Shown here piece after piece: positions 1 through 38,266 of a stretch of 64,000 nucleotides of DNA. This DNA comes from Cyanidioschyzon merolae (Eukaryota), in assembly GCA_000091205.1 (NCBI GenBank), contig AP006497.2; one strand, written 5' to 3'. Positions within the stretch are counted from its first letter, which is position 1, and each line of letters begins with the position of its first letter. The notes beneath the pieces were generated by a model, which was not told where the DNA came from, searched no databases, and saw only the letters and a list, made by a program, of their open reading frames with translations. The position numbers and the translations under genes were made by a program.

Positions 1-239
1 GGGAGCGTCCGCGGGAGACACGCGGTCGGGCGTCGTGTCCAATTTGGGCCGTGCCTCACGCGCAACGTGTCCGGCGGATACAGACATGCGCGCGCACGCA
101 CGCACGCGCCGGCCGGCGCGCCTGCGAGCTAACTACGTCATCGTCATGCACCGCAACTGGATTCCATAGACAGGCGCGTGTCATCTCATGCTCTTTCGAG
201 GTGTAAGGCAGACGCGTTCGATTGCGTCTATTTAAAGTA

Positions 240-700
240 ATATAAAATCCAAGGTATGGAGATGAAAGTCGGGGATCCTGGCGGACCGTCATCGCCGGGC
301 GCCCGGAAAAACGAAAAAGTCCTCTTCTCGCCTGTCATCGAGCGAAGAAGCGCAAGTGACGTAGATGAAGAAGAGTGGAGATAGTCAAGAAAAGGTGCTT
401 GATCCACGAGACGATGACGAGACTGTAGTGGCACAGAGGGCACGAGTTCAATGAGCCCCTGCGATCATGGGTTCAACCACCGGCAATGTACGCGAAGAAT
501 TTCGTGAACCGTGACCCCAACGCCGCCATGAATATAACACGACGTGTGGTGCTGGACACGAGTCCCGCGGAGCTGAGGCACTCTAGTTTTGTGAGGAAAC
601 CGCTCAAGGTCGAATTGTGCAAGAAGAAGTAGAAACCAGTAGCAGGTGACCGGTCAAAAAAAGGCGGGGCGGTGTCGGCGAGTGGGTATGCGTACCCCGC
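240..700 (+). mobile_element. Degraded 3' fragment of a TnpB/Fanzor-like element (copy 3), oriented tail-to-tail with copy 1. Includes a conserved 3' flank.
   Basis: The plus-strand frame at 429-632 translates to ...AKNFVNRDPNAAMNITRRVVLDTSPAELRHSSFVRKPLKVELCKKK*. The RDPNAAMNI stretch matches the RuvC-III consensus RDxNAAxNI and is homologous to RDFNAAINIRRCAVLETRPPE of copy 1. An upstream shifted frame (PVIERRSASDVDEE) resembles IPIDEFRTSHSHHE of copy 1, but with stops and frameshifts. DNA at 600-700 aligns with the reverse complement of 1845-1946. Confidence 0.55.
429..632 (+). pseudogene. C-terminal RuvC-III fragment of a TnpB/Fanzor-like nuclease (copy 3), truncated by an upstream in-frame stop at 426-428.
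   Basis: Direct translation gives a RDPNAAMNI motif. The peptide is homologous to the copy 1 C-terminus. It is inverted relative to 1946-2030. Confidence 0.5.
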
Positions 701-1284
701 TCTACGGTCGTGAGCCATTTTTCGTCTTGCTGAGTATATATATGGACGCTAGTGGAGGCGATGACTTAAACTACGCATAAGCGACATTCCGCGGGGATGT
801 TCCCGAGGGCCTTGTCCTGATGTGTTACCCGGTATCGCGCGCTCCCTGACCAATGTTTCAGTTTGCCGGGCAGTAGGTGAACCAGCCAGCTATCCAGCGG
901 GTTGTTTAGGTACAGGCATATTACATTCCCTTAAATTCACGAATCTTTTTAAGGAATCCTCTTGTTTCATACTACTACTTCCGTGCTTTTCGCGCTTAAA
1001 CTGAAATGCGCACAGAATACTCCGTCATGGATACCGATTGCGCAGCGCCTGCTTCTCTTCCACATGCGTGTGTCTCGGACCTAAAAAGTGCAGTATTTTG
1101 CGGTTATCCTGGAGTGTCGCCCTATCCACCGCAGAAGTAAACTCGTCCGGTGCCTGCTTCTTCCGATGCGCTGCGGCTGTACTGAACAGCAACGCCCGCT
1201 GAGACGCGGTCGTTGTGGAGTATTCACGTCGCAACCCAGCCAAGCGCAGCTTCCATACAAGGAAAGAAAGCTCTAGCGTCTCCT

Positions 1285-1878
1285 TTAAGTGTTGCCGACG
1301 TTGCGTTGGGGAACACCACTGGCCAGTTCGACCTTGGTGATGCGCCCGCCCATCTTCATGATCCGCTGCTGCTCGCTGTACCAGGAAGTGAACGGCACCA
1401 TCTTCGTTGTCGCAACGTTCTGCAACTCGCGACCGCTGTCAACACGTGACTGACTGGGCAGCACATACGAGACCTTAAACATGCGGCGATCATTCGCAAC
1501 GCCAGATGACTTGATGCGCCGCGGTCCGAGGTTCCCCGCGCTGCTCCCGTTCATATCGTACCCTGTCATGCGGACGCTCCAGGACGAGTGTGCCAAGCAC
1601 CGCTGCGACTCTGCAGACTTTGCAGAAGCCTTAACACCTGTTCCAAAGAAACTGGTCTGAACGAACATGGTCAACGAACGAAGAAACACAGAGAACAAAG
1701 ATATCGCGAAGTTGTGAGTCAAAAGACGGTGGTGCAGCGAGCGCAGCCGGCGAGCTCGCTTGCGTATTCTCGCCACGTTCTCGCCGGCCGTGTACAGTAG
1801 TGGCGATCGGCGCGCCTTGGACAAAACGTCTCCAACTGATGTGCAGACGCCTCCCCGTCTTTTTGGACCGGCCACCAA
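1285..1878 (-). CDS. Hypothetical protein, function unknown, lying between the two facing TnpB/Fanzor-like 3' ends. Its start may be non-ATG in the track.
   Basis: 197-aa ORF. Its C-terminal half (…KMVPFTSWYSEQQRIMKMGGRITKVELASGVPQ) looks protein-like, but I cannot assign a family. Confidence 0.25.
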   Translation of the reverse strand: MVAGPKRRGGVCTSVGDVLSKARRSPLLYTAGENVARIRKRARRLRSLHHRLLTHNFAISLFSVFLRSLTMFVQTSFFGTGVKASAKSAESQRCLAHSSWSVRMTGYDMNGSSAGNLGPRRIKSSGVANDRRMFKVSYVLPSQSRVDSGRELQNVATTKMVPFTSWYSEQQRIMKMGGRITKVELASGVPQRNVGNT

Positions 1879-1945
1879 CTACTTCTTCCAATTTTATCTC
1901 ATATAGTTCGACCTTAGAAGGTTGTCCAAAAAAGTACCTTCTTGT

Positions 1946-2557
1946 TCACTCTGGAGGTCTCGTCTCCAGCACCGCACATCTCCTGATATTGATGGCAGCG
2001 TTAAAGTCTCGGTTCGCAAACTCCATACGTTTCTTACCATCGTTGGTTGTACTTACTAATGCAAGTAGCCCTCGAAGTTTCGCCCTCCTTTCCATTTGCT
2101 CTTCCGTCAGCGGTCCGTACTTTTTTGCATCCTCAGGGCTCCGCTGGCACTTTTCCATCTCCACTCTCTGGAGCGTGCGCCCCCGCTCATGGTGTGAATG
2201 CGATGTTCGAAACTCATCTATCGGTATTGTAACAAAACGCCGTGCGCACTCCTTATACGTTCTCGTCGTTGGAGCTGGTGCAGTCCCTTTTTGGGTCTTC
2301 CATCGCCCTGCTCCGTACGCTACTACGAGCCTCTGACTTTCATCCTCCTTCAGGGCACTCAACTGATTGAAAAAATTCGCGAACGCCCGCTGCTTCCCAC
2401 AATACAAGTTCATTCGAAGACGAGCCCACCGGGGCTTGGTATACTCCTCCCACAGCGCATCCCAATGGGCAACACGAACTTCCATGAATTTCCGAAAAGC
2501 TTTAAAGTCCGCTCCTCGACTCATCACCTCGCTCAAAGCTTCCAGGTGCTCGTTCAT
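1946..2557 (-). pseudogene. C-terminal segment of the TnpB/Fanzor-like nuclease. It holds the TnpB-like TSQ-region equivalent and RuvC-III. A single TGA separates it, in frame, from the upstream segment.
   Basis: Translation gives ...RLVVAYGAGRW...FVTIPIDEFRTSHSHHERGRTLQRVEMEKCQ...KRMEFANRDFNAAINIRRCAVLETRPPE*. The RDFNAAINI stretch matches RuvC-III RDxNAAxNI. 'IDEFRTS' resembles the V-P-YTSQ segment that precedes the zinc finger in TnpB. The CxxC...CxxC zinc finger is replaced by a His-rich SHSHH...C stretch. Confidence 0.65.
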
Positions 2558-2566
2558 TCCTGAATT

Positions 2567-3655
2567 TCAAGTCTCGATTTTGTTCCTTGCATTCATGCTT
2601 CCCGATTCTCGATAATATCTCGCTCTCGAGAACCTCAACAGACGCATGTCTTTCTGACATAAGTTACCGTCAGGACCATCTTCCGCACGCTTCGGTGCTG
2701 CGATGGTGATGATATTTGTGTTGCCGGGGTCCGCGCCAATGACAAAGTCGTTATCCTGCACTTTCCGCGTCTCAGGATCTGCTTCTTTCTCATCTTCATC
2801 CTTCGTCACCTCAACGACATGCACGTTATCCTGCACCTGCTGCATCGCAGGATCCTCCTTTTCGTTTTCTTCATCCTTCGCCGCGTCAACGACAAGGTCG
2901 TTATTCTCTACCTCCTGCGTCGCGGGATCCGCCTCCTCCTTTTCCTCATGGTTCGCCGAGGGCGGGACTGGTCGATCTCTCTTCAACCGCCGATAGTGTA
3001 CACACAAGGCTACTCCATCGGTTTCGATTAACCCAGTGGACAACTTTTGCTTGCTCACTCTCAGACGTTTGGAGCTGAAGATATTCTTCCAGGACATCTC
3101 CCGGTTTTCACCGGAAAACTCCTCCCTGCTAACATCGAACTCGGGACTGATCTCCTTCATGATGCCATGAGGGATTCTGGAGTCGATAGTCACGAAATGT
3201 GACTTGATATTGGACATTGGAACGACGTTGAAGCGCTTCTCCTTTAGGACAGCCTTCCTTTCCTCCCACTCTAAATTTTCCCTATTCAGCCTCATCTCTG
3301 CTTTGCGTTCGAGCTCTCGGTCGAGAAATACGAAATATCGCAGGAAAAGGCGATAGTATCTTTCCTTATCTTTTTTCAACTCTGATATCTTGTCTGTTGG
3401 ATTCGCCATCCCCAAGATTGCACGGTGCGCTTGTAGAACCGCGCGGATTACAGAAGCCTCATTCGTGCTCTCGTTTGACCCCTTCTCTCCGGCGAATTCG
3501 ACCTCATCTTGATGCTTACGATCTTTCGTGATGCCATTCATAATCGCCCATTTTCCATTGCGCGATAGGCCCGGGTAGAGTGCAATCACGGCGCGTATCA
3601 TGAAACGTTCGAGGCTCGTTGTCAAATGGTTCTTCAGGTTCGTGAGGTACTTCAT
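2567..3655 (-). pseudogene. Middle segment of the TnpB/Fanzor-like nuclease. It contains a REC/WED-like region, acidic 24-aa tandem repeats and RuvC-I.
   Basis: The segment ends ...DNDFVIGADPGNTNIITIAAPKRAEDG..., matching the RuvC-I consensus GIDxG..N of TnpB/Cas12. It is in the same frame as 1946-2557 but separated from it by TGA at 2567-2569. Its N-terminal part (MKYLTNLKNHL...FMIRAVIALYPGLSRNGKWAIMNG) is homologous to the copy 2 peptide IKYLANPNNHMNMNPERFMIPSIFALYPGGSRKARCAIIHG. Confidence 0.65.
2700..2950 (-). repeat. Three tandem units of about 72 bp inside the nuclease ORF. They encode D/E-rich 24-aa repeats (…KDEENEKEDPAMQQVQDNVHVVEVT…).
   Basis: The units '...ttcatccttcgtcacctcaacgacatgcacgttatcctgcacctgctgcatcgcaggatcctcc...' and '...ttcatccttcgccgcgtcaacgacaaggtcgttattctctacctcctgcgtcgcgggatccgcctcc...' are visibly repeated. 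Confidence 0.6.
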
Positions 3656-3793
3656 CGCTCCGCATGTGTAAATATCCCGGTGACTCTTGTACCGACGAAC
3701 CCGTAAGAGGGATGTTTTTCGTGGAAGGCATGCACTAGCTCATTTTTCCTCCGCGCTTCCTCTGTACCAAGCATCAGGTGATGAATAAAGGTC

Positions 3794-4084
3794 TTATCGA
3801 AAAACCCGTCCGGGAACCTCGACCGTTTCCATGTGCGTCACGTCGCGATACATCTCCCTCGCCAAATACATCAGTCCTGACGACGCCTTGACAATACTCT
3901 TGGAGTACGAGTCGACACGTTTTTTGATAGCGTCTCGCAACTTTTCGCTGTACGGATCCTTGATATATCCAAGAAGAAAGGTTTTCACCACCTTCTCGTC
4001 GTACAGCCGTCTTTCTTGCTGCCTTCGACGTAGGGCCTCCCCCTTTTGCTTCTTTTCCTCTTCCTTTTCTTCTGGAATGGGCAC
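3794..4084 (-). pseudogene. N-terminal segment of the TnpB/Fanzor-like nuclease. The track start is GTG. It is frame-disrupted relative to the 2567-3655 segment.
   Basis: The peptide ...VVKTFLLGYIKDPYSEKLRDAIKKRVDSYSKSIVKASSGLMYLAREMYRDVTHMETVEVPGRVFR* is homologous to copy 2 (VKAFLLWNIKDPYEEKLPEAIRNRVASSSLSVCKASSGIIHLLKEMYDYVMELKTVEVPEELF). An alternative frame over the same DNA encodes a K/R-rich stretch (SRRKGRGKEAKGGGPTSKAARKTAVRR). Confidence 0.55.
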
Positions 4085-5877
4085 TGTTTTTTGTTTTTTC
4101 TCCAGCAGCCGGCGACCCTGGGCCTCCAGGATCGTGAACTTGCTTTTTCACAGCTTTCCTTGTTTTGTTTTTTTTTTGAAAAAGAACGCTCTTTGAACCC
4201 TTCTGTTATATACTGCAAAAAACACTAGACTAGACTTGTTTGAAGTTTGAAACAAAAACGAACTGAAAGACTGTACTTTGCTATGACCTCAACGGAAATC
4301 CAACTTTCTACAGCTGAACAACACGCTAGAGATCAGGATCGCGTTTCCGTTCAACGGAGGCATACGCGTCGTGTCTCATGCCTGCCTGATCTCCCAGTTG
4401 CGCTCACTGAGCGCGATGCGTGCACCGCGCGAGACGCCTCACCGATCAATAAAGGACACGTGTCCGACACCCTGCATTGGCACGTGCGTGTTCGCATCGC
4501 ACTGCAGCCAAAATAACGTATCGTAGATCGGAAACTCACGTAGAATGCACTCCTGCTATAGGCTATGTCGTTGGTGCCTATCGCAGTGCCGCCCTGAAGC
4601 ACAGTCGGTGTTGTGGCACGCTTGGATCTCCATAATGCCTCCAGAAGAAGCGTAGCTTTCGCAGCGGCTCACGCTTGTCTGGATGAGGTGTGCATCACAC
4701 TAGCCTTGAAGAGTTTCGTTAGTTTTATTGATCGTAACCAAAGTAGGCATATTAGTGTTCCCGAACACGGCTACAAGTTTATTCCCTATGCTTGTTATGC
4801 ATGCTGCACGGACGCTGCAGGGAGTATCTAATTTGAATTGTGCTTCTATCCTGCGTCATAGGCTGGTACTGATGACAGCTCAAGTCATTTCCATGCTGCT
4901 TTCGTTGTCTAAATTATGGTGCCTGCTTCGTCCTCCGGATCCGGTGATCTTGGCAGAGGCAGAGCACACTCGACGGGCCCTTTGCTATCGGTTTCAGCTT
5001 CTCCTTGTTCAACTCTGGGCTGGGAGGTTCCCCCATAAAGTTGGACCGCGTCAGCTCCGCCGATCGCGCCTCCACCACCATACATCATCTGACATTGATG
5101 GCGTTTTGTCTAAAACGCTCGTGATAGAGCTGAGGTCAAGAAGCGATCAATCTTGACCGACGCTATCAAACGAGCGGTAACAGAAGCTGAGGGCTGTAGC
5201 CGGCACCAGGTGCTCTGGTGCCTACATGCTGGCCGTGAATCGTGCGTGACGAAGCCGCACAGCATGCCACGGTTTCCTAGTACGTAAACCAAGCACGTAT
5301 TCGAAACGTTCGGGTTCAGTGTGATGACGAGTCGCCGCTGCGGCATTCTGGGAAAATCATCCGAGTGCGCTATGGTTTTTCGAATATCGAGCATCATCAC
5401 GAGTGTGGGTGCGCTTCACTGCACGAGTTGCAACGATCACCGAATCCACCATCATCCAAAAGTGACGAAAATTCACATGCGCACCGGCCTCGCACCTCTA
5501 GGTCAGGACGTGCCCACCAGCACGCAAACAAATTTCGTGCCCCGCTGTGCTTTCACCAAAAACGAAAGGAAACATGCGTTTCCTCGACCAGGGATAGAGG
5601 GTTCCGAATTCCTTCAGATACTGCCGATGTTTCGCCCGAACCCAGACCAGCATCTGCAGTGTGCCCACGAGCATACACAGGATGCCTGCGATTGTTCGCA
5701 TCATCGAGATCAATCCTACGCACGCCAGTACCTCAAATATGCAGTTCGGATACGACACGAACTCGAAAAGCAAGCCGAATGGGATCCGCCACCAGCGGCG
5801 ACCGCGAAACCCGATTGCAAACCGCTCCCGCAAGCCATTTGGGCAAACGAGTGGTGCAGCGCGCATGTTCATATAAT

Positions 5878-5915
<38 letters not shown>
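5878..5915. repeat. (CAG)12 microsatellite immediately upstream of the Mpv17-like start codon.
   Basis: The run gcagcagcag... is read directly from the sequence. Confidence 0.95.
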
Positions 5916-5916
<1 letters not shown>

Positions 5917-5960
5917 TGCAAATACCCCACTGCATCTGCGCAGTTCCTGGACCAGCACCG

Positions 5961-6629
5961 ATGAGGCACGTGCGGGGCAGTCCAGCCGTGCAGGCTGTTG
6001 CTAACTTATACGATCGGTACCTTCGCAGCCTCCAGCGATACCCCGTAACTACAAAGTCGCTGACTGCTGCCTCGGTTGGTGCTGCAGGTGACGCGTTGGC
6101 GCAGTTGCTCGAACGTCGTCAGCGAACACCGACAGCTGAGCGATTGGGAGACCCTGGTCCACAGAAGCCGTTTAACTGGCGAAGGCTAGTGTTATTCGCA
6201 ACGTTCATGGGTGTCTTTAGCGCACCAGTTTCTCATTATTGGTACCTTTGGTTAAGCAAACGCTTTCCCGCAACCAATATGGTAGCGGTTAGCAAACGCG
6301 TTGCCTGTGATCAGTTGCTTATGGCGCCGACAATCATCCCGGCAACACTGTTTTTTCTCGAGTACGCCGGGCGAAAGTTTGTCGCTGGAGAGAATGGTGA
6401 CGGCCTGTTGCGACACGCCTTGCAGGTCGCAAGCGAGGAAACCGGTCGTACGCTGCTGGCGAACTGGACGATATGGCCTATAGCGCAAGTTGTGAACTTC
6501 CGCTTCGTCCGCAACGAGCTGCAGGTCCTGTTCGCAAATCTGGTCGGTGTGGGATGGAATACCTTTCTCAGCCTTGTCGCTGCCGAAAACCTGCAGAAAA
6601 GCCATAAAACATTGACGAAAGCTGATTGA
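5961..6629 (+). CDS. Mpv17/PMP22-family membrane protein.
   Basis: The sequence ...TTKSLTAASVGAAGDALAQ...FMGVFSAPVSHYWYLWL...WTIWPIAQVVNFRFVRNELQVLFANLVGVGWNTFLS matches the conserved Mpv17/PMP22 pattern (GD..Q, H.WY, W.VWP..Q..NF.FVP...RVLF.N.V...WN.YLS). The track start at 5916 is GTG. The first ATG is at 5961. Confidence 0.7.
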   Translation: MRHVRGSPAVQAVANLYDRYLRSLQRYPVTTKSLTAASVGAAGDALAQLLERRQRTPTAERLGDPGPQKPFNWRRLVLFATFMGVFSAPVSHYWYLWLSKRFPATNMVAVSKRVACDQLLMAPTIIPATLFFLEYAGRKFVAGENGDGLLRHALQVASEETGRTLLANWTIWPIAQVVNFRFVRNELQVLFANLVGVGWNTFLSLVAAENLQKSHKTLTKAD

Positions 6630-9072
6630 GAAACCGGACGGGCTCGCCTGGTTGGATGCCGTCAATGCATCTTTCCCGCGAGCCGTTCAGGTACGATCAT
6701 CTGCTGGCAACGCCCTTCCTGCGTTCGTTCGCAGGCATCGTCATCGAGACCTGCTGCTCCTGGTTCGTGCAACAGACTACGCGGTGCGGGATGCCTCGAT
6801 GGTGGGGTTTATTTAAGGTGTCGGATCGAGGCATCCCCCGAATCTGCGATAGTCATCGGTCTCTGGTCGTGGATGCAATGGCACGGTGCTTTCGTTGCAA
6901 ACATGACGAAGATCATGGAACCGTTCAGTTCCGAGAACCAGACACAGTCTATGCCACAGGTGGACGGCCTAACGCACCTTGCATCGAATCATTGCGAAAC
7001 ATGGCCTGTGGATGGTTTCCCATGTGTGCCAGGTCGCCCGAAGCATTGCTCAGGTACACGCGTGGCGGAGTAAAACGGCCAATGTCCTGCAACACGGGCG
7101 CTCACTATGTGTTTGGAACTCTTCCCATGGCCATGAACACCAGTCTTTGCGGATTCACGCTGTGGCTGCTTCCTCTGTTCCCGCTCATATGTCCGGCCTC
7201 GTGACGTCGGTCTCTCCGCTCACTGCAGCTCGGCTTGCAGCGCCCGATGAATGTTCGCAGGAGTGTCCAAGTCCAGATTTGACCAGTTCCGACTGTAGTT
7301 CACGCATGTCATGAACTTTTTGGAATTTGCGATTCAAGCCTTGTCTGCCGTTCACAGCTTGTTTGTTTAAAGCATCTGCGCGTGCTTCGTAGCCTTGACA
7401 TCTGATTGTGGTCAGGTTTTCTCCAATGCCAATCGCAGCTCCTCCTGCTCCTGTTCCAGTTCGTCCGAGGTCTTCTCTATGGCACGTGAACGCTTCCTCC
7501 GTCGCTCAACAGATGCGAGTGACGGGTACCGAGGGCCCGCCACGATACAGTCCTCCCTTTTGCGCGCCCGGTGCCGTACGCTGGGATCACGGGCCCTTTC
7601 TAAGCGATATCCTCGGGGGTTACGCTGCATGCGTTACGCCCAAGCGTACGTTGGTCCATTCGAGAGCGTCTCTTTCGATTGCTATAGTATCCATGACAGG
7701 AACGAGTATCGGAAGGATGATCCAAACGGTAGACCGCCAAAATGAGAACTTTCCATCTACGTGCACCCGACTGATACAAAGCAGAGACGCACTCTCCATT
7801 GAAAGCGACCACTGCGACGACTCGAGTCCAAGTCCAGCACTCTTTTCCATGCGAACAGCAAAGACGGTTGCGCCCCTGAGAGCACATTCCAAGAAAGATT
7901 TCATGCTGGTGTCGAATGCCGTGTCGTCGTTGGCCACAAAGACAGATCGATTTGTTTCTTGAACTGTACGGATTCTTTCACGTCACAAGTTTCGTGCGCT
8001 TGCGGCATGCGCTTGTGAACAAGTCGTCACGAAACGATACCGAGCTCTTCTTCCTCGTCAGCCGAGCGGTGCGTTTCGATGTGCCCATGAGTTGCCGTGA
8101 AACAGAAAGATCAAAAACTTGAAAAATGCGTCCTTGGAGCATGATTCTCGTAAGAAAAATGGAAACATTAAAGACGATGCCTACGCTTTGGATACTGGTA
8201 TTGGTTAGTTTACGAACCCTTGTTTGAGGACGTCGCAAACCGTCGTGAGTCTGGTGACGTAGCGCACGCCAACGGCAAAGCGTCGAAGGAGTCGCTTTCA
8301 AAACACGACCGAGAATCCGATAACTATGCATCCATTGGCAAGTGCTTATGACTGCGCTTGGGGCGTGTCGATGTTGTCCATTTGAAACAAGTTCGGAGCG
8401 GACTCAACGGACGGGACTAGAGCCAGTCGTTGTGTTCCATGCTATGGGGCCACGAGCTTCGTGCACATCTCGAAACAAACTCGTTGCATAGGGTCCTCGT
8501 CTGTGCGTTCGCGCGGGGGCGGCATGGCGGTCCTTGTTTCGACCGATTACAACGAGGCGCTCACCACTGATGAATAGCTCCTCCTTTTGGAGAAACGTTT
8601 GGGAACGGCTGCGAGCAGTCGGGACCCGAGCGCCGCGGGGTCCCGTCGAGCGACCGCCCCCGCAGTGCAAGGACTTTCTGGACTGGGACGACCTCACGAG
8701 CTACGATAAACAATATTGTGCCCAGTTCCGGTTGGACGTGGTTTCGCACCTCATGAAACAGGTTAGGAAGGGAGAGATCCAGGATCCGCAGCTCCGCCAA
8801 CAGATTGAAGCACTCTGGAAGGAGATCACTGCTGCCAGGCAACGTTTACGTTCAAAGTGATGCGGCAGGTCCCTCAAGCGCCTTGTGAAACAGGTCAGGA
8901 AGGTCAAAGTCCAAGACTTGCAGCTCCACTCAGAGATTCAAGCACCCTGGAACAAGCTCACTCCCGCAAGCCAAGATGGACCTGTAAAGTAGGACCCAAG
9001 GCCCCGGTATCATGTTGCGATACCACAGGGAAGCGATCCCCCGGAGCCTCGTCTCCGAGGACGAGCGCGGCA

Positions 9073-11607
9073 TCACTGGGTCCCGTGCCCGCCGTTGCTT
9101 CGCGCAGCTGCGTTTCTCTGCTGAAACTGCTGCAGCGTTGCCAATAACTGCTTGACTTGGTCCATATCGGCTCCAGGCGGTGCCGTCGATGGCTGGTTCG
9201 CCGCATAGGGTGCATTTCCGGAGAAGCCAGGATGCTGTGCATGCATCACAGGGGCATTCATGCCCGTCGGTGGCAACGAAGCCATGTATCCGGGGTAGGC
9301 ACGCTGACCGATGGTGCTCCCGGGGCCGTTCGAGGTCGCTTGCGGAGGTGCCGAGGGCTGCGGCTGCGGCTGCGGCTGCGGCGCTCCCGGGTGGCCGTAC
9401 AGATAGCCTGGCGGCATCGAGGCGTAGGGATAAGGCATGGTGCCCGGGGCCGCCACCATTGGATTCTGGTACCGGTACGCTGCTGCAGCGGTCGGGAGTG
9501 AGGGCGCTGGAGGCGTCATTCCAGGGACCACCCCGGACATCATCGATGAGATGTTGCTGGGATCCGCGACGGTCGGTGGCGAAAGCGCCATCGCAGCTGA
9601 GGCCACGGTGTACGCAGCGGGCGGCAGAGGCAAGTTAATACGTTCCTCGCGGAAGATAATGGCAAGCGCCTCATGAAAGGGTATGATGGAGCCTCCCCCA
9701 GCGTACTCGAATCCTGTTTTTTCATAAGTTCGTATGGAACACGTTCCCTTGGAGGCATCCTTGCTGCTAACCACGATCACGTAACGTACGCATTGTGCGT
9801 AGGCCTCTTTGAGCGCAGTGCCCAGGGAATCCGAGAAAATATACGCCACATCAGCTGAAATTCCAAGGCTGCGGATCACGTTCTGCATGGCGTGGGCCAT
9901 GGATCTCGACGTCGTTCCAATAACCAGAATGCGTACATAGGGTGCACCAGGTCTAGGTGGCGGCCGCGGGCCACCCGTTTCCAGCGCAGCTGCGTCACGC
10001 TTTCGCCACCCGCTGCTCTGCTGCAGGGGGCCTCGTTTGCCCTCGACAACGGGACCGGTGCTATGGTGTGCAGCTGCCTCCCTTCCGGTGGCACGGCGGG
10101 TGCCATGGTTGCCGCTGCCGCTGTCGTTGCGACGTCCGGACGCAACGCTTAGATCCAGGTGGCGGCCACCGATCAGGCGCCCTTGCTCGTAACGAATCGC
10201 GAGTTGCGTCGATTCCGGATTATCATACTGGATGAAGGCATAGGAGCGGAGCAGGAGTGGCTGCTCGATGATGCGGCCGTACTTGGAGAAAATGCTTATC
10301 AATTCAACCGGACTTGTAGTCTCTGACGCCAAGTTTCCAATAAACAGGCGTGCGTCGTTGGTGCCTTCTGGATGCCGCCTCGGCAGCGTCTGTATGTATT
10401 CAGCCGCCTCTTTCAAACTCAAGGCTGGTCGCAGCTTACTGGAATCATCATCCTCCAGTTTGTTCCATTCCGCTTCAGATTTCTCGGGCACGGCTGGCGT
10501 CGGCTGCAGGTCGTGTGCTGTCGAGGCCTCCTCTTGAGCGCCTCCTGTGGAGGGTTCTGCGGACTCCTCTTCGGATGTGGACTGGTTAGGGGCTGGTGCG
10601 GCCAGCTCCGTTTGATCGGATGCGACATTCTCGTGGAAGGCGCTTCCTTTGGATCGGCGTGGAATGCTTGCTCCAAATGATACCGGGGACGACTCTGCCG
10701 CTCCAGAAACGGCTTCTGTTAGACCTGTCCCGTCCTCGAGAGTGACTGTTGCCTCTGCCACGCTGCCTGACTTTGTCTCCACTGCGTCGGTTTTCTGGCG
10801 CTTACGGCGAACGACAGGCGGAAGACTATCGTCATCGAGCAGGTCGTCGTGCTCGATGCTGGCCCTCTCGATGGTGTCATCGTCGTTCAGGGTCACCTCA
10901 TCGGTATCATCGTCGACGACGGCCGATGGTGGAACTGGTGACCCCCGAACCTGTTCATCCAACGAAGAGTGCATCGAAGGCGTGGTGTCGACGCGATTCC
11001 GGAGCTCCTGTGCAGCTTCCGCTGATGAAAAGCCATTTTTGGAGACGGACTCGACAGCGGCGACGGCGGACTGTAATGGGGTTGCCTCAGCATCTTGCGC
11101 CTCAGCGCTGCAGTGCCCATGCGGGCTCGTAGCGCTCGGTAGATCTAGGGCAGTTTGCTCCTGCTCCGGTAACCCGAGGCACACTGGCCTGGCTGGTGAC
11201 TCCTCTGACGACAGCACTGCGGATGTAGCCGCCATCGCATCCCCCTCGCTCTTCCCACATTCCGCAGTCGGCTTCGGGTCAGTCGTATGCTCGGTGCAAG
11301 CTGGGCGTTCGTCTCGAGAGCTGGACGCCACCGGGCTGGTTTCGTGGGCACCGACGGACATGGGCCCAACCGGGTCCTCCACCCCGACAGCGGAAGCGCG
11401 CTGGGTTTCCGGTGAAGCTGGTTCCTTAGAAATCGGGTCTGAGGCCTCCTGTTGCTCAAAGGTTAGCTCTTCTGGTATGGCGGTAACGTTTTTCACAGTG
11501 TCCTCTTGGACTTTAGACTCGCCGTCGTCGTCGTGATGGTGGTGAGCAGCGGGCGCTGGCTCCTCCGCAGCTTGCGCGTCATTGCGCAGACGACGCCCGC
11601 GAGGCAT
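9073..11607 (-). CDS. RRM-domain RNA-binding protein with a long low-complexity N-terminal region and a P/Q/A-rich C-terminus that includes PQPQPQ.
   Basis: The RRM signature is LFIGNLASETTSPVELISIFSKYGRIIEQ...YAFIQYDNPESTQLAIRYEQGRLIGGRHLDLSVA. The track start at 11652 is TTG. The first ATG (MPRGRRL) is at 11607. The antisense ORF at 10649-11536 is treated as a GC-bias artefact. Confidence 0.6.
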   Translation of the reverse strand: MPRGRRLRNDAQAAEEPAPAAHHHHDDDGESKVQEDTVKNVTAIPEELTFEQQEASDPISKEPASPETQRASAVGVEDPVGPMSVGAHETSPVASSSRDERPACTEHTTDPKPTAECGKSEGDAMAATSAVLSSEESPARPVCLGLPEQEQTALDLPSATSPHGHCSAEAQDAEATPLQSAVAAVESVSKNGFSSAEAAQELRNRVDTTPSMHSSLDEQVRGSPVPPSAVVDDDTDEVTLNDDDTIERASIEHDDLLDDDSLPPVVRRKRQKTDAVETKSGSVAEATVTLEDGTGLTEAVSGAAESSPVSFGASIPRRSKGSAFHENVASDQTELAAPAPNQSTSEEESAEPSTGGAQEEASTAHDLQPTPAVPEKSEAEWNKLEDDDSSKLRPALSLKEAAEYIQTLPRRHPEGTNDARLFIGNLASETTSPVELISIFSKYGRIIEQPLLLRSYAFIQYDNPESTQLAIRYEQGRLIGGRHLDLSVASGRRNDSGSGNHGTRRATGREAAAHHSTGPVVEGKRGPLQQSSGWRKRDAAALETGGPRPPPRPGAPYVRILVIGTTSRSMAHAMQNVIRSLGISADVAYIFSDSLGTALKEAYAQCVRYVIVVSSKDASKGTCSIRTYEKTGFEYAGGGSIIPFHEALAIIFREERINLPLPPAAYTVASAAMALSPPTVADPSNISSMMSGVVPGMTPPAPSLPTAAAAYRYQNPMVAAPGTMPYPYASMPPGYLYGHPGAPQPQPQPQPSAPPQATSNGPGSTIGQRAYPGYMASLPPTGMNAPVMHAQHPGFSGNAPYAANQPSTAPPGADMDQVKQLLATLQQFQQRNAAARSNGGHGTQ

Positions 11608-12395
11608 AATTAACACGTGGACGGTGCTGCTTCTTCCTCCTAAGTAAAACAATCACCACAGATGCTTAGCGCTTGGCACCCTGGGCTGAAGCGGAAAGCT
11701 CTGCGCTTTACCCTCTGAGAACGGGTGACTATGGTTAAACCCCTCGCGCTAGGAGCGCAACACGTCCCGCGTCGGTGATGCACGATACACTGGACGAGGC
11801 CGCGCCCTCCGAGGGGGCATGTCACGTCACGCGGAATGCGCGATCATCGATCGCCAAGGGCGCTGGCGCCCTCATGCGCATCGCGATCATCGATCGTGCG
11901 TAACGCACCCCGGCGGCGCGCGTGGATGTGCCAGGGCGCACGCGCGCGCCCTGGGATCGCGAATGCCCGCGAGGATCGGTGCAGCGAAAGAGTGTTGTGT
12001 ATATCCAATCATGGACAAAATTGTTGCGGTTGTGACTAGGGAACCCCAGTGTGATTCCGGCGCGCTGCTCGCTGTAGCTGTCGTCCGGAAAACTTGCTGT
12101 GGCACCTGGGCAGAGAGCGAAGGAGAGCCAGAGCAATCGCCGTTCTATAACAGGCAACAGCGATGCGTTGTGCAACTCGCGGGTAGCGCCGGGATAACAA
12201 CGTGGGAAGCACGTTGATCTGTGCAAGCTTCTGCATACGACATTAGACTCTGACTGAGACTGCGCTATCTATTACAGAGGTCTTCTGGATTTTTCCATAG
12301 CGCGCACCTTCATTGCGACCTCTGGACGCAGCTTCGGGTCGCTGCGCGTTTGCGAGCTGGGCGCTGGTCTCTTCGCGCTCAGGTTCCTCTGTGTC

Positions 12396-13244
12396 GTGAT
12401 GAAAGAGACTGAACAGGTGTCGGAAGCGCCACACGGCCTAGAAGGAGCCTGGTTAGACTTGACAAACAGAGTGCGCGTCTCCGGGGATACGGTGGAAGCG
12501 TGTTCGGCGTTTTCAATTGGTCCACCGCGTTGCCGCTGGCTGCTACAAGCGACAGACCGCGGCGTCAACTGTGCTGCACTGGATCACTACGTACCGCACA
12601 TATGCGGCACACACACGGAAACAGTGTATCACATTGCACACCATCGATATATAAAGAGGGCAGTTTGTGAGATACCGTTTTTCAGGTTTCACAAAGCTCG
12701 GATTCAAGTCTGCACGGCGAAAATCGCATGCACCGAACAGGTGCTTCCTTCGGCGGATACAGACTATCCTTGCCTGGAACCGAACGACTTGATCGTTGGT
12801 CCATCGGCGTTAAACCGTGCACCTCGGTACACACGCGCACAAGACAGCACGATAGAGGCCCTGATACTCATCGTCGTCGGGCCCGACGGCACGTCCGACT
12901 GGCGCGATGGCAAGCTCGATGATCGGCCGCCGTATCTGACACCCGCTGCAATCGAATCACTGGCGACCCGCTACCCGAACATGCGTCATTTGCTAACGAA
13001 TTTGCCATCCGTTGATCGCCGGCGAGATGGTGGCCTTGTCCGTAGCCACCGAGCGTTTTTCGCAACTGACTTTGCTGGAGATGGGACACCGTCCGAAAGC
13101 CCCCAGAAAACCATAACAGAGTTACTACGAGTGCCTCCAGACTGGCAATTGTACGACGATGCAGAAGGCGTTGTCTGTATCTCCCTCGCACCCATTGAGG
13201 GGCTCGATGCGATCCCCAGTTCCGTCTACTTTAAGAGTCACTGA
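12396..13244 (+). CDS. Possible cyclase-family protein, similar to kynurenine formamidase. The assignment is weak.
   Basis: The HICGTHTETVYHIAHH stretch loosely resembles HxGTHxDxPxH. The C-terminal pattern (ILIVVGPDGTSDW...SVDRRRDGGLVRSHRAFF...ITELLRVPPDW) resembles the cyclase fold. Confidence 0.3.
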   Translation: MMKETEQVSEAPHGLEGAWLDLTNRVRVSGDTVEACSAFSIGPPRCRWLLQATDRGVNCAALDHYVPHICGTHTETVYHIAHHRYIKRAVCEIPFFRFHKARIQVCTAKIACTEQVLPSADTDYPCLEPNDLIVGPSALNRAPRYTRAQDSTIEALILIVVGPDGTSDWRDGKLDDRPPYLTPAAIESLATRYPNMRHLLTNLPSVDRRRDGGLVRSHRAFFATDFAGDGTPSESPQKTITELLRVPPDWQLYDDAEGVVCISLAPIEGLDAIPSSVYFKSH

Positions 13245-13714
13245 TTTGCGGATGCAATGCTTCCGTGCTACACTCTGCGAGTTCGCTGCAACCAGCTTCA
13301 TTTGCCGATACCTAACATACTTGTAGAGCAGTGTCCACGAAGCGCATAATGCTAACAGCAGCCGGCGCTCGACGGCTACGTGCTATTGGAGCAGTCCGCG
13401 CGCCCCGTACGGACACGTACCATGGTAAACAAAGAACGATCGCCAGCGCGGGTGGCGCTCCACGAGGGCGCCCCGGAGCGTTCGCCGCCTGAGCGATCGC
13501 ACCGGCGACGCGAAGGCGCTCGAAGGGGACGCGTGCGTACCGCCGTGGCCAGATCTGTCCAAGGATGTTCATGATGTGGAAGGGGTTCTGAAGTTCGCAC
13601 TTCCCGATTGGCGCCTTGGCGGCGTCTCTGGTTCGTTGCGGCAGGCGACGTTCCCGCCCGAGTTTTACCCCTTACCCCACGGGGCTCGGTCAGCAGGCGG
13701 GCGTTGACCCGCCT

Positions 13715-14404
13715 ATGCCCAGAATAAAGCACACACCCGTAAATAGACCTCGTAAAACCCATCAGTGTGTGCACTGTGGGACGCTTTTTGCCACAAGTTC
13801 TCAACTTTGTCGCCATACGCGGACCGTGCACGAAGGACGGCGCGACTATCGGTGCGAACGCTGCGGTGCGGCTTTTACAACGAAACAGAGTTGTGCGACG
13901 CACGTTCACACGGTGCACGAAGGTGCGCGGGACTTTCTATGTTCGCTGTGTGGTTCGCGTTTCACGCAAAAAGGGGCGCTCACCGTTCATATTCGGACCG
14001 TGCACGAGGGTCATCGCGATCATCGTTGTGATATATGCGGGAACACGTTCACTGCGAACTCCAGTTTGAAACAGCATATTCGTGTTGTTCACGAGAACGC
14101 TCTCGACTGGGTATGCGGTAAGTGCGGCGCCAGGTTCACGAGCCGCAACGGTCTGAAATACCATCTGCGAACGGCGCACAGTGCACATGGCGGGCGAGAC
14201 TTTCCCTGTCCGCGCGAGGGCTGCGACCGCGTATTCACAAGCAAGGGCGGTCTTTTGAAGCATCTGAAAGCCCAGCACGATCGCGTGAAGGACCAAATCT
14301 GTGACCTCTGTGGAGCGGCTTTCGCGCATCGCACTCAGCTGAACCAGCATAGAAAGCGCGTGCACGAACAATCCCAGAGCCGGTCGAGTACCGCCCCAGG
14401 CTAG
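13715..14404 (+). CDS. C2H2 zinc-finger protein with about seven tandem fingers.
   Basis: The repeated pattern C..C.....F.......H.RTVHEG (HQCVHCGTLFATSSQLCRHTRTVHEG, YRCERCGAAFTTKQSCATHVHTVHEG, ...) occurs seven times. The track start at 13616 is TTG. The first ATG (MPRIKH) is at 13715. Confidence 0.8.
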   Translation: MPRIKHTPVNRPRKTHQCVHCGTLFATSSQLCRHTRTVHEGRRDYRCERCGAAFTTKQSCATHVHTVHEGARDFLCSLCGSRFTQKGALTVHIRTVHEGHRDHRCDICGNTFTANSSLKQHIRVVHENALDWVCGKCGARFTSRNGLKYHLRTAHSAHGGRDFPCPREGCDRVFTSKGGLLKHLKAQHDRVKDQICDLCGAAFAHRTQLNQHRKRVHEQSQSRSSTAPG

Positions 14405-14839
14405 TCGTTCAAAAGGATGATGGACGGCCCCTAGGTTGCAAGTGTCGCAGTACTGCGGCGGAGGCTTCTACGTGCTCTTTTCGGCTTGAGTGCCTTGTAA
14501 AATGCAAGTGTTTCCCTGGCATCATTTCGGATTGACGGACCTTTACGTGCGATCAGGGGATTTAGATTTGCGTGCACATCGCGCACAGCTTGGTCCGTTG
14601 GAGGCGGACCTGGATCCGAGTCCCATCTCACTGGATTGTAACTGGCGTCTATATTCATATCCACGTGTCTGAACTTGGCAACCACGTTATTGGTTGCTAA
14701 GCACCTTCAAGCGTTTGGCGACTTCGAACGGCACCTGGACTGTACGCGGCGGATGTTCACGCAAAGGCGGTCTGTTACTTGTCAGCGGAGGCAGTCCCTA
14801 TACTCAACGGCAACAGCATTTACACGGTTCGACCAGAGA

Positions 14840-35169: not shown

Positions 35170-36160
35170 GCAGGGCGCTGATGCTCGGTGCTCCCGGAGC
35201 GCGCTGCACGCATCACAGAGGCTTCATTCGTTCTCCTGTGTGTGATGTCTTCTCGTCGACGAATCCGTTCTCATCTTCATGCTGGCGATCGTTGTTCGAG
35301 CCATGGATGATGGCACATCTCGCCTTGCGAGAGCCGCCCGGGTACAGCGCAAAGATGGAGGGTATCATGAAACGTTCGGGGTTCATGTTCATATGGTTGT
35401 TCGGGTTCGCGAGGTACTTGATTGCGCCGTATTCGTAAACAACCGAGTCGCCCCTGAATAAAATAACGTTGAAGCGGTATTCAGCATAATTTTCATGGAG
35501 GGCATGCACTCGCTCGTTTCTCCTCGACGTTTCCCCCGTGCCAAGCATTAGGCGTCTGTTGCAGGTAACGTTGAAAAGCTCCTCCGGAACCTCGACCGTT
35601 TTCAATTCCATAACGTAATCGTACATCTCTTTCAATAAATGGATTATTCCTGAAGAAGCCTTGCAAACACTCAAGGAGCTGGACGCGACACGGTTTCTGA
35701 TAGCCTCTGGCAGCTTTTCCTCATAGGGATCCTTGATATTCCATAGAAGAAAGGCTTTCACCTCTATCTCGTCGATCTGCAATCTTTCGGCTAGCTTCTG
35801 ACGTCGGACCTCCGGCTTTCGCTTCTTTTCTTCTCCTGTTCCTTTTTACTCGGTTGTGAATTTCGTGTTGTTCTGGCAGCCGGTGATACCGGCCCAGCAA
35901 GATCCTCGACTTCCTTCTGCATAATGCTATGTTTTTGGAAGAAACACACTTTGAACGCATCTGCTATAAACCGTGAAAAATCTCTTGAATCCACTTACTT
36001 GACGCTTGAAGCACAACTGAAATGAAAGACTGTATTTTGTCACAACTTTAACCGAAATATATCTTGTACGGTAGAACGAAACGCTATTCGTTAGAAGCGC
36101 GTTCCTCCTCAACGGCGAGATGCGCGTCGTTGCTCTCGGCTGCGGAATATGGAGGTGCGC
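35000..36160 (-). mobile_element. Decayed N-terminal fragment of a TnpB/Fanzor-like element (copy 2) with a conserved 5' leader.
   Basis: The peptide at 35213-35782 is homologous to copy 1, matching both its N-terminal segment (3794-4084) and the start of its middle segment. The leader at 35950-36160 aligns with 4190-4395. Protein-level similarity continues about 60 nt past the stop at 35213 (HEDENGFVDEKTSHTGERMKPL*CVQRAPGA against HQDEVEFAGEKGSNESTNEASVIRAVLQAHRA). Confidence 0.55.
35213..35782 (-). pseudogene. Truncated N-terminal portion of a TnpB/Fanzor-like nuclease (copy 2).
   Basis: MQIDEIEVKAFLLWNIKDPYEEKL...IKYLANPNNHMNMNPERFMIPSIFALYPGGSRKARCAIIHGSNNDRQHEDENGFVDEKTSH aligns with the copy 1 segments. 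Confidence 0.55.
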
Positions 36161-36856
36161 GACCCGACCCCAATATATAGAACAAAGAGCAGAAACTAAC
36201 CACTAACTTGCAACGACGTTACGATTTCTTTCCCTCTCTATGATAAACATGAAAAGAGGGTAGGGCTTTTCGTGCTGTCGAACGTTCGCCTTCTAGGCCG
36301 AGGTTCCCGCGGGCCGGACGAGTCTGCCGTGCAATCGCTCCGTATTCCTCTGCAGTGGCAGGTGCTGTGGTGAGATCTGAGCAACTCTTCTGCAGCGCAG
36401 GTAATTCTGGGACTCGGAGCGGGTAGCATGCGTCTGGGCGTTGCGCTTGTCCTAGTGGACATCTAGTGTGTCGCTTCGCGCTGTCGCAGGTAGTACGTTT
36501 GTCTGTGCAGATCGCAGGCTCCCAGCATGATAACTAGCCCTGATTCCGTGTCAGATGGAGCATCCCTCGATCCGACGCCCTATGCGGTTTGGCAAAGCCG
36601 TTCCAGCGTGGTGCTGCATCCCTACCAACGATATAGGCGCTTTGGCTGGAACTCAAAGCAGGCACTCGGCATAAGATAGAGCCTAGGAAAACGCCAGCAC
36701 ATCCGAGAGGAAGTAAAACGAACGGAGCCTGGAAACAGAGCGTGGAATCATGGATACGTCAACGCGCGCTATTCTCAAGGGCATCGGTCACGGAACGCTG
36801 GCCTCTGTGTCAACGACTCGCTCGAAACCGAATTCCGTTACGTCTCGCCTCTTCGT

Positions 36857-38266
36857 ATGCGTGCGCTTTGGCAGAGACTCGCACGAGCGCCGAGAGAGTT
36901 GTGGCTCATCTACTTGTTGAAACTACTCTCTTCCTATGCATACTTCAGTCTCTCGTTAGCGCTCGTCCTCTACCTGTCAGAGACGCTCGGCTACGATGAC
37001 GAAACTGCAGGTCTACTGTACGGGCTCTACGGGGTCGTTGCCAGCGCGTACGGCCTTGCGAGTGGCTGGCTCATCGATCGTCTGGGAGCACGTCGATCGT
37101 TGCTTTTCGGTGCAGCGCTGGGCACGCTTGGGCGCACTGCTTTGGCGGTGCTTTCGCAACGCCTCGTGGTGACAACGCTGCTGGTCACGGTGCTTCCGTT
37201 CGCCGAGTGTCTTGGGGTGCCTGTGCTAACAATATGCATCAAGCGGTATACGAGTGGCAAAGACGGTACTCGCACAGTGGCGTACTCGTTGTTCTACACG
37301 GTCATGAACGTTGCAGCGCTCTTGGCCGGGCCTGCCGTGGACCTCTGCCACCGATTCTGGGACTTGCGCGCCCTCTTCTGGACCTGTGCGCTCGCCAGCG
37401 CGGCCATGTTCGGTATCATCCTCCTGGGCGTCCGTGAAATCGAAGTCGACGCAGAAGGCCGAACTCGTGATTTTGTTTCACCGTTTGCGGGAGAGACGGT
37501 TTTGGAATCCCTGCGGCGCCTGGCCGTGGACCAGCGCTTCTGGCGCCTGCTCGTTTTCACGACGCTCATTGTGGGTGTTCGACTCATTTTCCGGCACCTG
37601 GACGCAACATTACCCAAGTATATGACTCGAGTGTTCGGTGAAAGTGCCCCATTCGGACTATTCTATGCAATTAATCCATTCATGATCATCACTCTGGTGC
37701 CGGTTCTTGGCGTTTACACCAGTCATATCGATCATTTCCAGATGATCCTATACGGATCATTTCTTTCGGGATTCTCGGTGTTTTGGATGATGCTCGGTGA
37801 TCGGTACTGGACGGTGGCTTTGTTCATCATGACGCTGTCTCTGGGCGAAGCGGTGTACTCGCCGCGGGTGTACGATTACACAATGGCAATCGCTGCGCGT
37901 GGTAGCGAGGGCACCTACACCTCGTTGGCGAGCCTGCCACTATTCGGCGTACAGTTTTTCACTGGCTGGATGAGCGGCACCTTGCTGCAGCGATATTGTC
38001 CTGCGAGCCCGGCCAGCGCTCGGCAGCCTCGAAAAATGTGGTTCATTATCGCGTTGGCAACCGCTTGGTCCCCACTAGGAATGTGGTTTGCTCGCAACTG
38101 GCTACGAACGGACGTTGCGTCGCGAAAGGCGACCGCATCCGCGGACGCATCACCGGCGAATGCCAATGTCGAGTACGCAACGACAGTTGAGGCCCCGGAT
38201 GCCGAACAAATGACGAAGCGAGCTGTACCCGAAGACAGCATTAGCCAAAGCGTATCAATTGAATAA
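36857..38266 (+). CDS. Major facilitator superfamily transporter.
   Basis: 469 aa with an ATG start. It has about 12 hydrophobic segments and the MFS-like motif GWLIDRLGARRSLLFGAALGTLG after TM2. Confidence 0.7.
   Translation: MRALWQRLARAPRELWLIYLLKLLSSYAYFSLSLALVLYLSETLGYDDETAGLLYGLYGVVASAYGLASGWLIDRLGARRSLLFGAALGTLGRTALAVLSQRLVVTTLLVTVLPFAECLGVPVLTICIKRYTSGKDGTRTVAYSLFYTVMNVAALLAGPAVDLCHRFWDLRALFWTCALASAAMFGIILLGVREIEVDAEGRTRDFVSPFAGETVLESLRRLAVDQRFWRLLVFTTLIVGVRLIFRHLDATLPKYMTRVFGESAPFGLFYAINPFMIITLVPVLGVYTSHIDHFQMILYGSFLSGFSVFWMMLGDRYWTVALFIMTLSLGEAVYSPRVYDYTMAIAARGSEGTYTSLASLPLFGVQFFTGWMSGTLLQRYCPASPASARQPRKMWFIIALATAWSPLGMWFARNWLRTDVASRKATASADASPANANVEYATTVEAPDAEQMTKRAVPEDSISQSVSIE

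Follow-up and report, generated by a model that had tools for sequence, protein, structure and literature searches.

The insertion at positions 4968-1782 on the minus strand of the window (the whole stretch of 64,000 nucleotides of Cyanidioschyzon merolae DNA that was analysed) is very probably an old, non-functional member of the CMe-1A transposon family. The nonsense codon that replaces W485 with TGA in its nuclease gene belongs to a set of at least six disabling changes in this copy. CMe-1A is the lone Fanzor1 family described in C. merolae, and its roughly 150 copies each share some 80% identity with the consensus (Bao & Jurka 2013, PMC3627910). According to the same report, the consensus is 3169 bp long and has no TIRs, its TSDs are undeterminable, its 5′ 635-bp module is about 95% identical to TE-N2_CMe, and its protein of 734 aa is encoded by a single exon, some copies being still intact. 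The consensus was taken from the supplement of that report (Mob DNA 4:12), and a blastn search with it, together with a comparison with metagenome copies, placed the following family members in the window.

4968-1782, minus strand: degenerate CMe-1A-type Fanzor1 element of about 3.19 kb (copy 1)
36733-35203: second copy, 3′-truncated, matching consensus 90-1624 at 78.7% identity, so that from position 90 on the 5′ part of the consensus is present
501-679, plus strand: small 3′ fragment, 72% identical to the CMe-1A consensus

The blastn alignment paired consensus 671-3145 with window 4391-1782, at 83.3% identity over consensus 671-2196 and 88.5% over 2118-3145. The 5′ limit of copy 1 was set at 4968, the same base at which the similarity of ten metagenome copies ended, and the segment 4968-4392 was recognised as a variant 5′ module common to ten metagenome copies. 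At the other side, the conserved 3′ end stopped at a sharp boundary near 1782-1790. No inverted repeats pairing the two ends of the element (4968 and 1782) were found. The published 5′ 635-bp module, which is TE-N2_CMe-like, was not recognisable in copy 1, where homology to the consensus starts at 671, and copy 1 was therefore assigned to a 5′-variant subfamily and not to CMe-1A proper. Six ORFs of the window, which belongs to the CMO gene series, were residue-identical to proteins of C. merolae 10D (among them BAM81602, 81607, 81611, 81612 and 81615); BAM81602 is CMO259C, BAM81611 a plant organellar DNA polymerase, BAM81612 CDC7 and BAM81615 V-ATPase subunit d.

The interrupted gene was laid out along the minus strand as listed below, with the catalytic residues in CMe-1 numbering.

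3655-2567, minus strand: 362-aa ORF, starting at internal Met168 and ended by the premature TGA, with the REC/WED-like part and RuvC-I
2714-2737, minus strand: RuvC-I motif GADPGNTN, catalytic Asp codon GAC at 2729-2731 (D431)
2569-2567, minus strand: premature TGA replacing TGG, the codon of an invariant Trp (W485 of CMe-1, W538 of the intact relative P0001)
2557-1946, minus strand: 203-aa ORF continuing the frame of the 362-aa ORF, with RuvC-II and RuvC-III
2201-2221, minus strand: RuvC-II motif IDEFRTS, Glu codon GAG at 2213-2215 (E603)
1985-2014, minus strand: RuvC-III motif NRDFNAAINI, Asp codon GAC at 2006-2008 (D672)

Across the stop the minus strand reads AAA ATC GAG ACT TGA AAT TCA GGA ATG, that is KIET*NSGM, exactly as a preliminary description of this DNA had translated it. 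Its further statements, that the two ORFs share one frame and that a lone in-frame TGA parts the RuvC-I segment from the RuvC-III segment, agreed with the frame arithmetic (3655-2557 = 1098 = 3 x 366) and with the motif positions: RuvC-I lies upstream of the TGA, and RuvC-II and RuvC-III lie downstream of it. All three codons of the RuvC triad are kept in the window copy and are split by the premature TGA, which falls between the RuvC-I aspartate (D431) and the RuvC-II glutamate (E603). Over their full length the two ORFs aligned with homologues that are each one continuous protein, at E values down to 3e-286, and since single uninterrupted homologues span both of them, they represent one interrupted gene and not a chance pair. 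The start of the 362-aa ORF corresponds to Met168, an internal residue of the 734-aa protein. The absence of a GT...AG intron across the stop, also claimed earlier, holds in its result and not in its reason: flanking GT and AG dinucleotides do exist, for example a GT near 2630 and the AG at 2562-2561, and an intron is excluded because the surrounding stretch is conserved coding sequence in the uninterrupted relatives.

The preliminary description had proposed a comparison with the orthologous codon in other genomic copies, and these carry a sense codon. At the aligned sites of 73 related loci, the codon was TGG in 64, TAG in three, TCG in three and TGA in one, and the site was disrupted in two; the sole TGA belonged to L001, an allele of the same locus as the window copy. 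The published CMe-1A consensus likewise has TGG (W485) at this site, where its protein reads KKIETWNAGMK. At the protein level, Trp occupied the position in 87 of 99 aligned homologous segments, and in an alignment of 30 sequences with identities down to 20% it formed one of the ten invariant columns. In the AF2 model of P0001 this residue (W538) is situated within a confidently predicted helix. The ancestral codon is TGG for an invariant tryptophan, and its conversion to TGA at 2569-2567 is a G-to-A transition at the third codon position.

The reality of the stop was examined with orthologous contigs from independent metagenomes, which were reached via the neighbouring Mpv17-like host gene (5961-6629). 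Two of them, L074 and L075, were colinear with window 1-14629 at 99.2-99.3% identity; they have the element at the same place, keep the layout of 96-, 362- and 203-aa ORFs and carry TGA at both 2567-2569 and 1946-1948. The 2389-bp contig L001 was 98.1% identical to the window in a gap-free alignment, and both TGAs were again present. A sequencing or assembly error, with TGG as the true codon and an unbroken gene segment, had been among the earlier explanations, and a one-base departure from the family consensus is indeed the kind of change that errors could make. Against it, the TGA appears in three independent metagenome assemblies (L074, L075 and L001), and with dozens of other differences from the window these are not copies of the reference; we give an error practically no credence. 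The TGA at 2569-2567 is real, and with TGG in the other copies and TGA confirmed in independent assemblies, the pseudogene alternative of the preliminary description survives. No empty site was found at the locus, as L074 and L075 carry the insertion together with the TGA and a third contig carries part of the element.

The same description had spoken of a single nonsense change in an otherwise intact nuclease frame. This did not stand when the copy was scored against two references, the published CMe-1A consensus and one derived from 33 metagenome copies, which revealed a lost start, three frameshifting indels and a second premature TGA.

4151-4149, minus strand: lost start, GTG in place of ATG relative to the published consensus (GTTATGGAAAAG) and to the consensus of the 33 metagenome copies
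4085..4100, minus strand: +1 insertion in an A-run at consensus codon ~18, shifting the frame between 'VKKQVHDPGG...' and 'PIPEEKEE...'
3810..3816, minus strand: +1 insertion at consensus codon ~113, by which the conserved 'FFDKTFIHHLMLGTEEA' falls in another frame and the main frame gains stops
3695..3715, minus strand: net 7-nt deletion at consensus codons ~145-153, restoring the frame in which the 362-aa ORF is read
1948-1946, minus strand: second premature TGA, at Leu692 (TTG in the published consensus), the consensus ORF being 42 codons longer
2749..2957, minus strand: tandem repeat of 75 nt (25 aa, acidic) within the ORF, 2.8 copies, with a copy number that differs among family members

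Besides the disabling changes, the window copy contains in-frame ones: 3 nt are deleted, and the 75-nt repeats are longer by 138 nt than in the published consensus. The TGA at 1948-1946 was also considered as the natural stop of the family and was ruled out, as the codon varies among the copies and the published consensus has TTG there followed by 42 further codons. Among 34 copies this codon was TAG in ten, TGG in six, TCG in five, TTG in five, CTG in four and TGA in two. The consensus of the metagenome copies itself ends at the codon of the second TGA, and some homologues have W at the positions of both TGAs.

These results bear directly on the age of the decay. If inactivation had been recent, the TGA would be the first and only lesion, and recent transposition of the family would be implied; the 1.7-kb frame 3655-1946, with one stop only and the catalytic motifs kept, does give that impression. 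It is contradicted by the five other disabling lesions, by a divergence of 12-17% from the CMe-1A consensus with the best sampled paralogue at most about 87% identical to the copy, and by lesions held in common with orthologous alleles that are 0.6-0.85% different in their flanks. In all orthologous alleles that were checked, both TGAs and the frameshift-split ORF layout were common to all, and as every lesion checked in these alleles is shared, the decay is old. Relative to 10D, the element in the orthologous alleles was 1.3% diverged and the flanks 0.6-0.85%; the faster change of the element fits unconstrained DNA. A full-length ORF was found in just one of the 73 sampled loci (L002, encoding P0001), nearly all sampled copies being broken. 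A recent inactivation is thus very improbable; the expressions 'recently inactivated' and 'recent activity of the family' do not suit a copy that is 83-88% identical to the consensus and shares its lesions with orthologous alleles, and the stop carries no information on recent family activity.

A working nuclease with its ancestral residue restored would be made if UGA were decoded, most plausibly as Trp by a near-cognate tRNA, and the preliminary description had listed read-through as an alternative. The position of the stop is exactly that of a Trp codon, the RuvC-II and RuvC-III motifs are intact in the downstream frame, and a mild synonymous excess was seen among the alleles. On the other hand, TGA is an ordinary terminator in this DNA: it ends ten of the 20 long ORFs of the window, host genes with Pfam cover included, such as those for a TPT transporter and a phosphoacetylglucosamine mutase, in both of which the Pfam match extends as far as the C-terminus. 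Genome-wide recoding of TGA as Trp was considered and was rejected on this stop usage of the host genes. Moreover, the paralogues do not have the stop (64 with TGG), the loss of the start and the three frameshifts would leave at best a protein without its first 167 residues, and another premature TGA follows downstream at 1948-1946. The best-known leaky stop context is UGA followed by C, whereas the base after this stop is A. With TGA ending host genes, the upstream frame broken and the paralogues reading TGG, read-through to a working nuclease is unsupported and must be considered highly unlikely.

The synonymous excess deserves a closer account. Variant sites among the orthologous alleles comprised 17 synonymous and 22 nonsynonymous ones, where 10.7 synonymous sites would be expected under neutral placement (P ~0.02), and this excess could hint at residual constraint. 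Its distribution was uneven: 19 of the 45 differences of L001 fell in one 196-bp tract, with 9.7% divergence there, as between paralogues, vs 1.2% elsewhere, and half of the synonymous excess lay inside this tract. Outside it, a hand count gave nine synonymous to 11 nonsynonymous sites, which was not significant. The tract resembles the product of gene conversion by a paralogue or of a chimeric metagenome assembly, and a tract of either kind would import differences that had been built up under selection. An exact donor was not found among the sampled loci, the best of which reached 89%. The excess was attributed mainly to the dense tract, an attribution that explains it and stops short of proof; in the case of read-through, the tract largely removes one of the arguments in favour.

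A third reading would have the nuclease dead and either the 362-aa ORF (the N-terminal, non-catalytic part) or the 3′ RNA region domesticated, with a retained role for the host or the element. The layout of 96-, 362- and 203-aa ORFs is kept in all orthologous alleles, and the 3′ end is conserved among copies, as might be expected in that case; yet over a divergence of about 1% both would be expected to persist even if no selection acted, and the element diverges faster than its flanks. The 3′ region was defined as follows.

1782..1945, minus strand: former C-terminal coding tail and conserved 3′ end, judged by conservation among copies

About 160 nt after the ORF were conserved up to the sharp boundary near 1782, and it is here that a putative omega RNA would lie, by analogy with other Fanzor1 elements. 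A search of the 3′ end of the element against Rfam gave no match, and RNAalifold applied to the 3′ end gave an energy of about -0.4 with almost no covariation and no convincing consensus fold, results that lend a structured RNA no support; the 362-aa and 203-aa ORFs had no exact sequence in the protein collection. Domestication is accordingly a very doubtful reading. Some residual use might take another form, in which an omega-like RNA from 1782-1945 would be used in trans by the few intact CMe-1 proteins, or low-level UGA read-through with insertion of the ancestral Trp would yield a RuvC protein that begins at Met168 and so is truncated at its N-terminus. This we consider improbable, if a little less so than the alternatives above. 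The synonymous excess among the alleles and the retained catalytic motifs are compatible with either form.

An old and non-functional insertion remains the preferred explanation, and its history may be sketched as follows. When intact, the CMe-1A gene encodes a Fanzor1 protein of 734 aa. Such proteins are TnpB-like RuvC nucleases of eukaryotes, and this one is presumably RNA-guided, by analogy with characterised members. A G-to-A transition in the TGG of the invariant W485 produced the TGA at 2569-2567, in a helix predicted to lie after the RuvC-I aspartate and before the RuvC-II glutamate, and any product ending there would be without two of the three catalytic residues. At least six lesions make up the decay (ATG to GTG at the start, +1, +1, net -7, W485 to TGA and L692 to TGA), and those checked in the orthologous alleles, all of them shared, are older than the split of those populations. 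The copy would then be a decaying relic yielding no product or function, in which the stop does nothing.

The importance of this is low, with one further decayed copy annotated in a transposon family that was published in 2013. For annotation work, it means that where a pattern of two ORFs and one stop is met, the native N-terminus is to be checked before recent inactivation is deduced. Environmental Cyanidioschyzon populations contain at least one full-length CMe-1-type Fanzor1 ORF (P0001, in L002), and this protein is a lead toward a Fanzor nuclease derived from a thermoacidophile.

The assignment of the encoded protein was examined by profile and by fold. A Pfam scan of the read-through protein and its close relatives gave no match, DUF8286 (PF26935) not being recovered, and a single-sequence PDB search with the window protein gave no match either; the family profile alone worked. 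This 30-member profile matched PpFz (9cf0) at E = 1.5e-23, SpuFz (8gkh) at 3.4e-15 and GtFz (9cer) at 2.2e-8, and the published CMe-1 Fanzor1 protein was colinear with the reading frame of the window. The comparison of the fold, in which REC/WED parts are joined to a split RuvC domain, was made on P0001, an intact relative with 73% identity to the frame of the window, and not on the broken window copy. Its AF2 model had a pLDDT of 78, and its top seven PDB matches were all Fanzor1 proteins (SpuFz, PpFz, GtFz), with E values between 1e-16 and 6e-14 and TM values of at most 0.71; for SpuFz in particular, E was 1.2e-16 and TM 0.58/0.70. In P0001 numbering, D484 and E656 of the RuvC triad were invariant in the family and D725 nearly so. 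The protein of the element is a Fanzor1 by homology and by fold, the fold being that of the relative P0001, and intact CMe-1 proteins are likely to be RNA-guided RuvC nucleases, judging from the Fanzor1 proteins that have been solved or assayed.

Among known systems, CMe-1A itself is the closest. The window copy resembles it in residing in the C. merolae genome, in a nucleotide identity of 83-88.5% over the ORF and 3′ end, in its single exon and in being without TIRs; the sizes are also similar (about 3.2 kb vs 3169 bp for the consensus), and its divergence agrees with the published figure of about 80% identity to the consensus. It differs from the consensus in at least six breaks, in the unmatched 5′ 580 bp (4968-4392) and in the 138 nt of extra 75-nt repeats. 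Both the family and the Fanzor1 element were already published in 2013, and the window copy is one more decayed member. Toward the solved Fanzor1 proteins SpuFz (8GKH, 9CEU), PpFz (9CF0) and GtFz (9CER), the likeness consists in profile homology and the D..E..D order of the RuvC residues, and the intact relative P0001 has their overall fold at only 12-16% identity. Between RuvC-II and RuvC-III the solved proteins have the canonical CxxC pairs of a zinc finger, and these are not conserved here: the family has 'TSYTHHELGC' instead, and the window copy 'TSHSHHERGR'. In the alignment 'YTHHELGC...RGLLALVS' occupies the place of the Cys pairs of PpFz and SpuFz, with His and Cys present in a non-canonical pattern. 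The acidic tandem-repeat insert is a feature of the family as compared with the solved proteins, and the P0001 model predicts it to be disordered (residues 373-471). A more distant likeness to bacterial TnpB (IS200/IS605, IS607) and Cas12f is seen in the PF07282 Zn-ribbon domain of distant homologues in the set, and in the RuvC part the P0001 fold search gave weak matches to Cas12 and Fanzor2. In contrast to bacterial TnpB and Cas12f, the element belongs to a eukaryotic nuclear genome, its protein is much longer and bears an N-terminal extension, and Pfam is silent on the copy and its close relatives.

The 5′ module of copy 1 (the degenerate CMe-1A-type Fanzor1 element at 4968-1782), occupying window 4392-4968, was found to be unlike the published consensus and was common to 10 metagenome copies, all of which ended at 4968. 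The related metagenome locus L073 was 82-84% identical to the window, including 400 bp past 4968, and it carried 358 bp of extra sequence (L073 413-772) placed precisely at the 4968/4969 junction. Taken together, the variant module and this extra sequence at the junction suggest that the 5′ ends of the CMe-1A-type family are modular or that insertions have been nested there. Beyond copy 1, the following relics of the family were present in the window:

35203-36733, minus strand: second CMe-1A copy, 3′-truncated (consensus 90-1624, 78.7% identity)
501-679, plus strand: small piece of the CMe-1A 3′ end, matching consensus 2907-3084 at 72% identity

The second copy, unlike copy 1, contained the published TE-N2_CMe-like 5′ module; it also kept about 240 N-terminal codons, these being degenerate as well. 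The fragment at 501-679 was the third CMe-1A relic within the 64 kb. An MFS transporter gene (36857-38266) adjoined the second copy, and a further ORF was located near the 3′ end of copy 1:

1293-1577, minus strand: small ORF with a CpcD domain (phycobilisome linker-like), the Pfam assignment being taken from the orthologous contig L074

This ORF started about 200 bp downstream of the 3′ end of copy 1, in the same orientation as the element. A perfect (CAG/CTG)n run was observed at about 5840-5880, just upstream of an Mpv17/PMP22-like gene (5961-6629); the run would encode 12-13 residues of Gln, Ala or Leu, according to the frame read, and it overlapped an opposite-strand ORF that was steroid-dehydrogenase-like.

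L001, an allele of the copy 1 locus, carried 19 differences within 196 bp (L001 679-874, equal to window 3305-3500), the two alleles being 98.8% identical elsewhere. Four of these 19 differences were also found in L075, a colinear orthologous contig, and no exact donor for the tract was found among the sampled loci. Either ectopic gene conversion between copies of CMe-1A or a chimeric metagenome assembly may account for the tract.

Only a single full-length family ORF was obtained among the 73 sampled loci, at L002 4001-6259 (metagenome contig Ga0504780_000149); it measured 752 aa as called and 722 aa counted from the first Met, and it had a 2OG-Fe(II) oxygenase gene on one side and a GRAM/VASt gene on the other. 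In L003, a contig from another sample that was 99% identical to L002, the same ORF was interrupted.

Two regions of the coding sequence were variable among family members. The first was a repeat just upstream of RuvC-I:

2749-2957: acidic tandem repeat, 75-nt unit (25 aa)

Its unit read ADPATQEVxDNDLVVDxxKxEExKE, and the copy number varied widely across the family, with many more units in the relative P0011; the AF2 model predicts this region to be disordered. The second was the codon at 1946-1948, a variation hotspot in the window and 33 related copies (TAG 10, TGG 6, TCG 5, TTG 5, CTG 4, TGA 2). Many copies ended about 42 codons short of the consensus stop, and in the stretch so lost the coding sequence would run into the putative omega-RNA region.

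Whereas Fanzor and TnpB proteins carry a canonical CxxC...CxxC zinc finger, family alignments A1 and A2 showed these cysteines replaced throughout the clade by YTHHELGC ... RGLLALVS, at about 2150-2215 in the window. RGLLWC was retained by more distant relatives. The metal site of this clade may be altered or lost.
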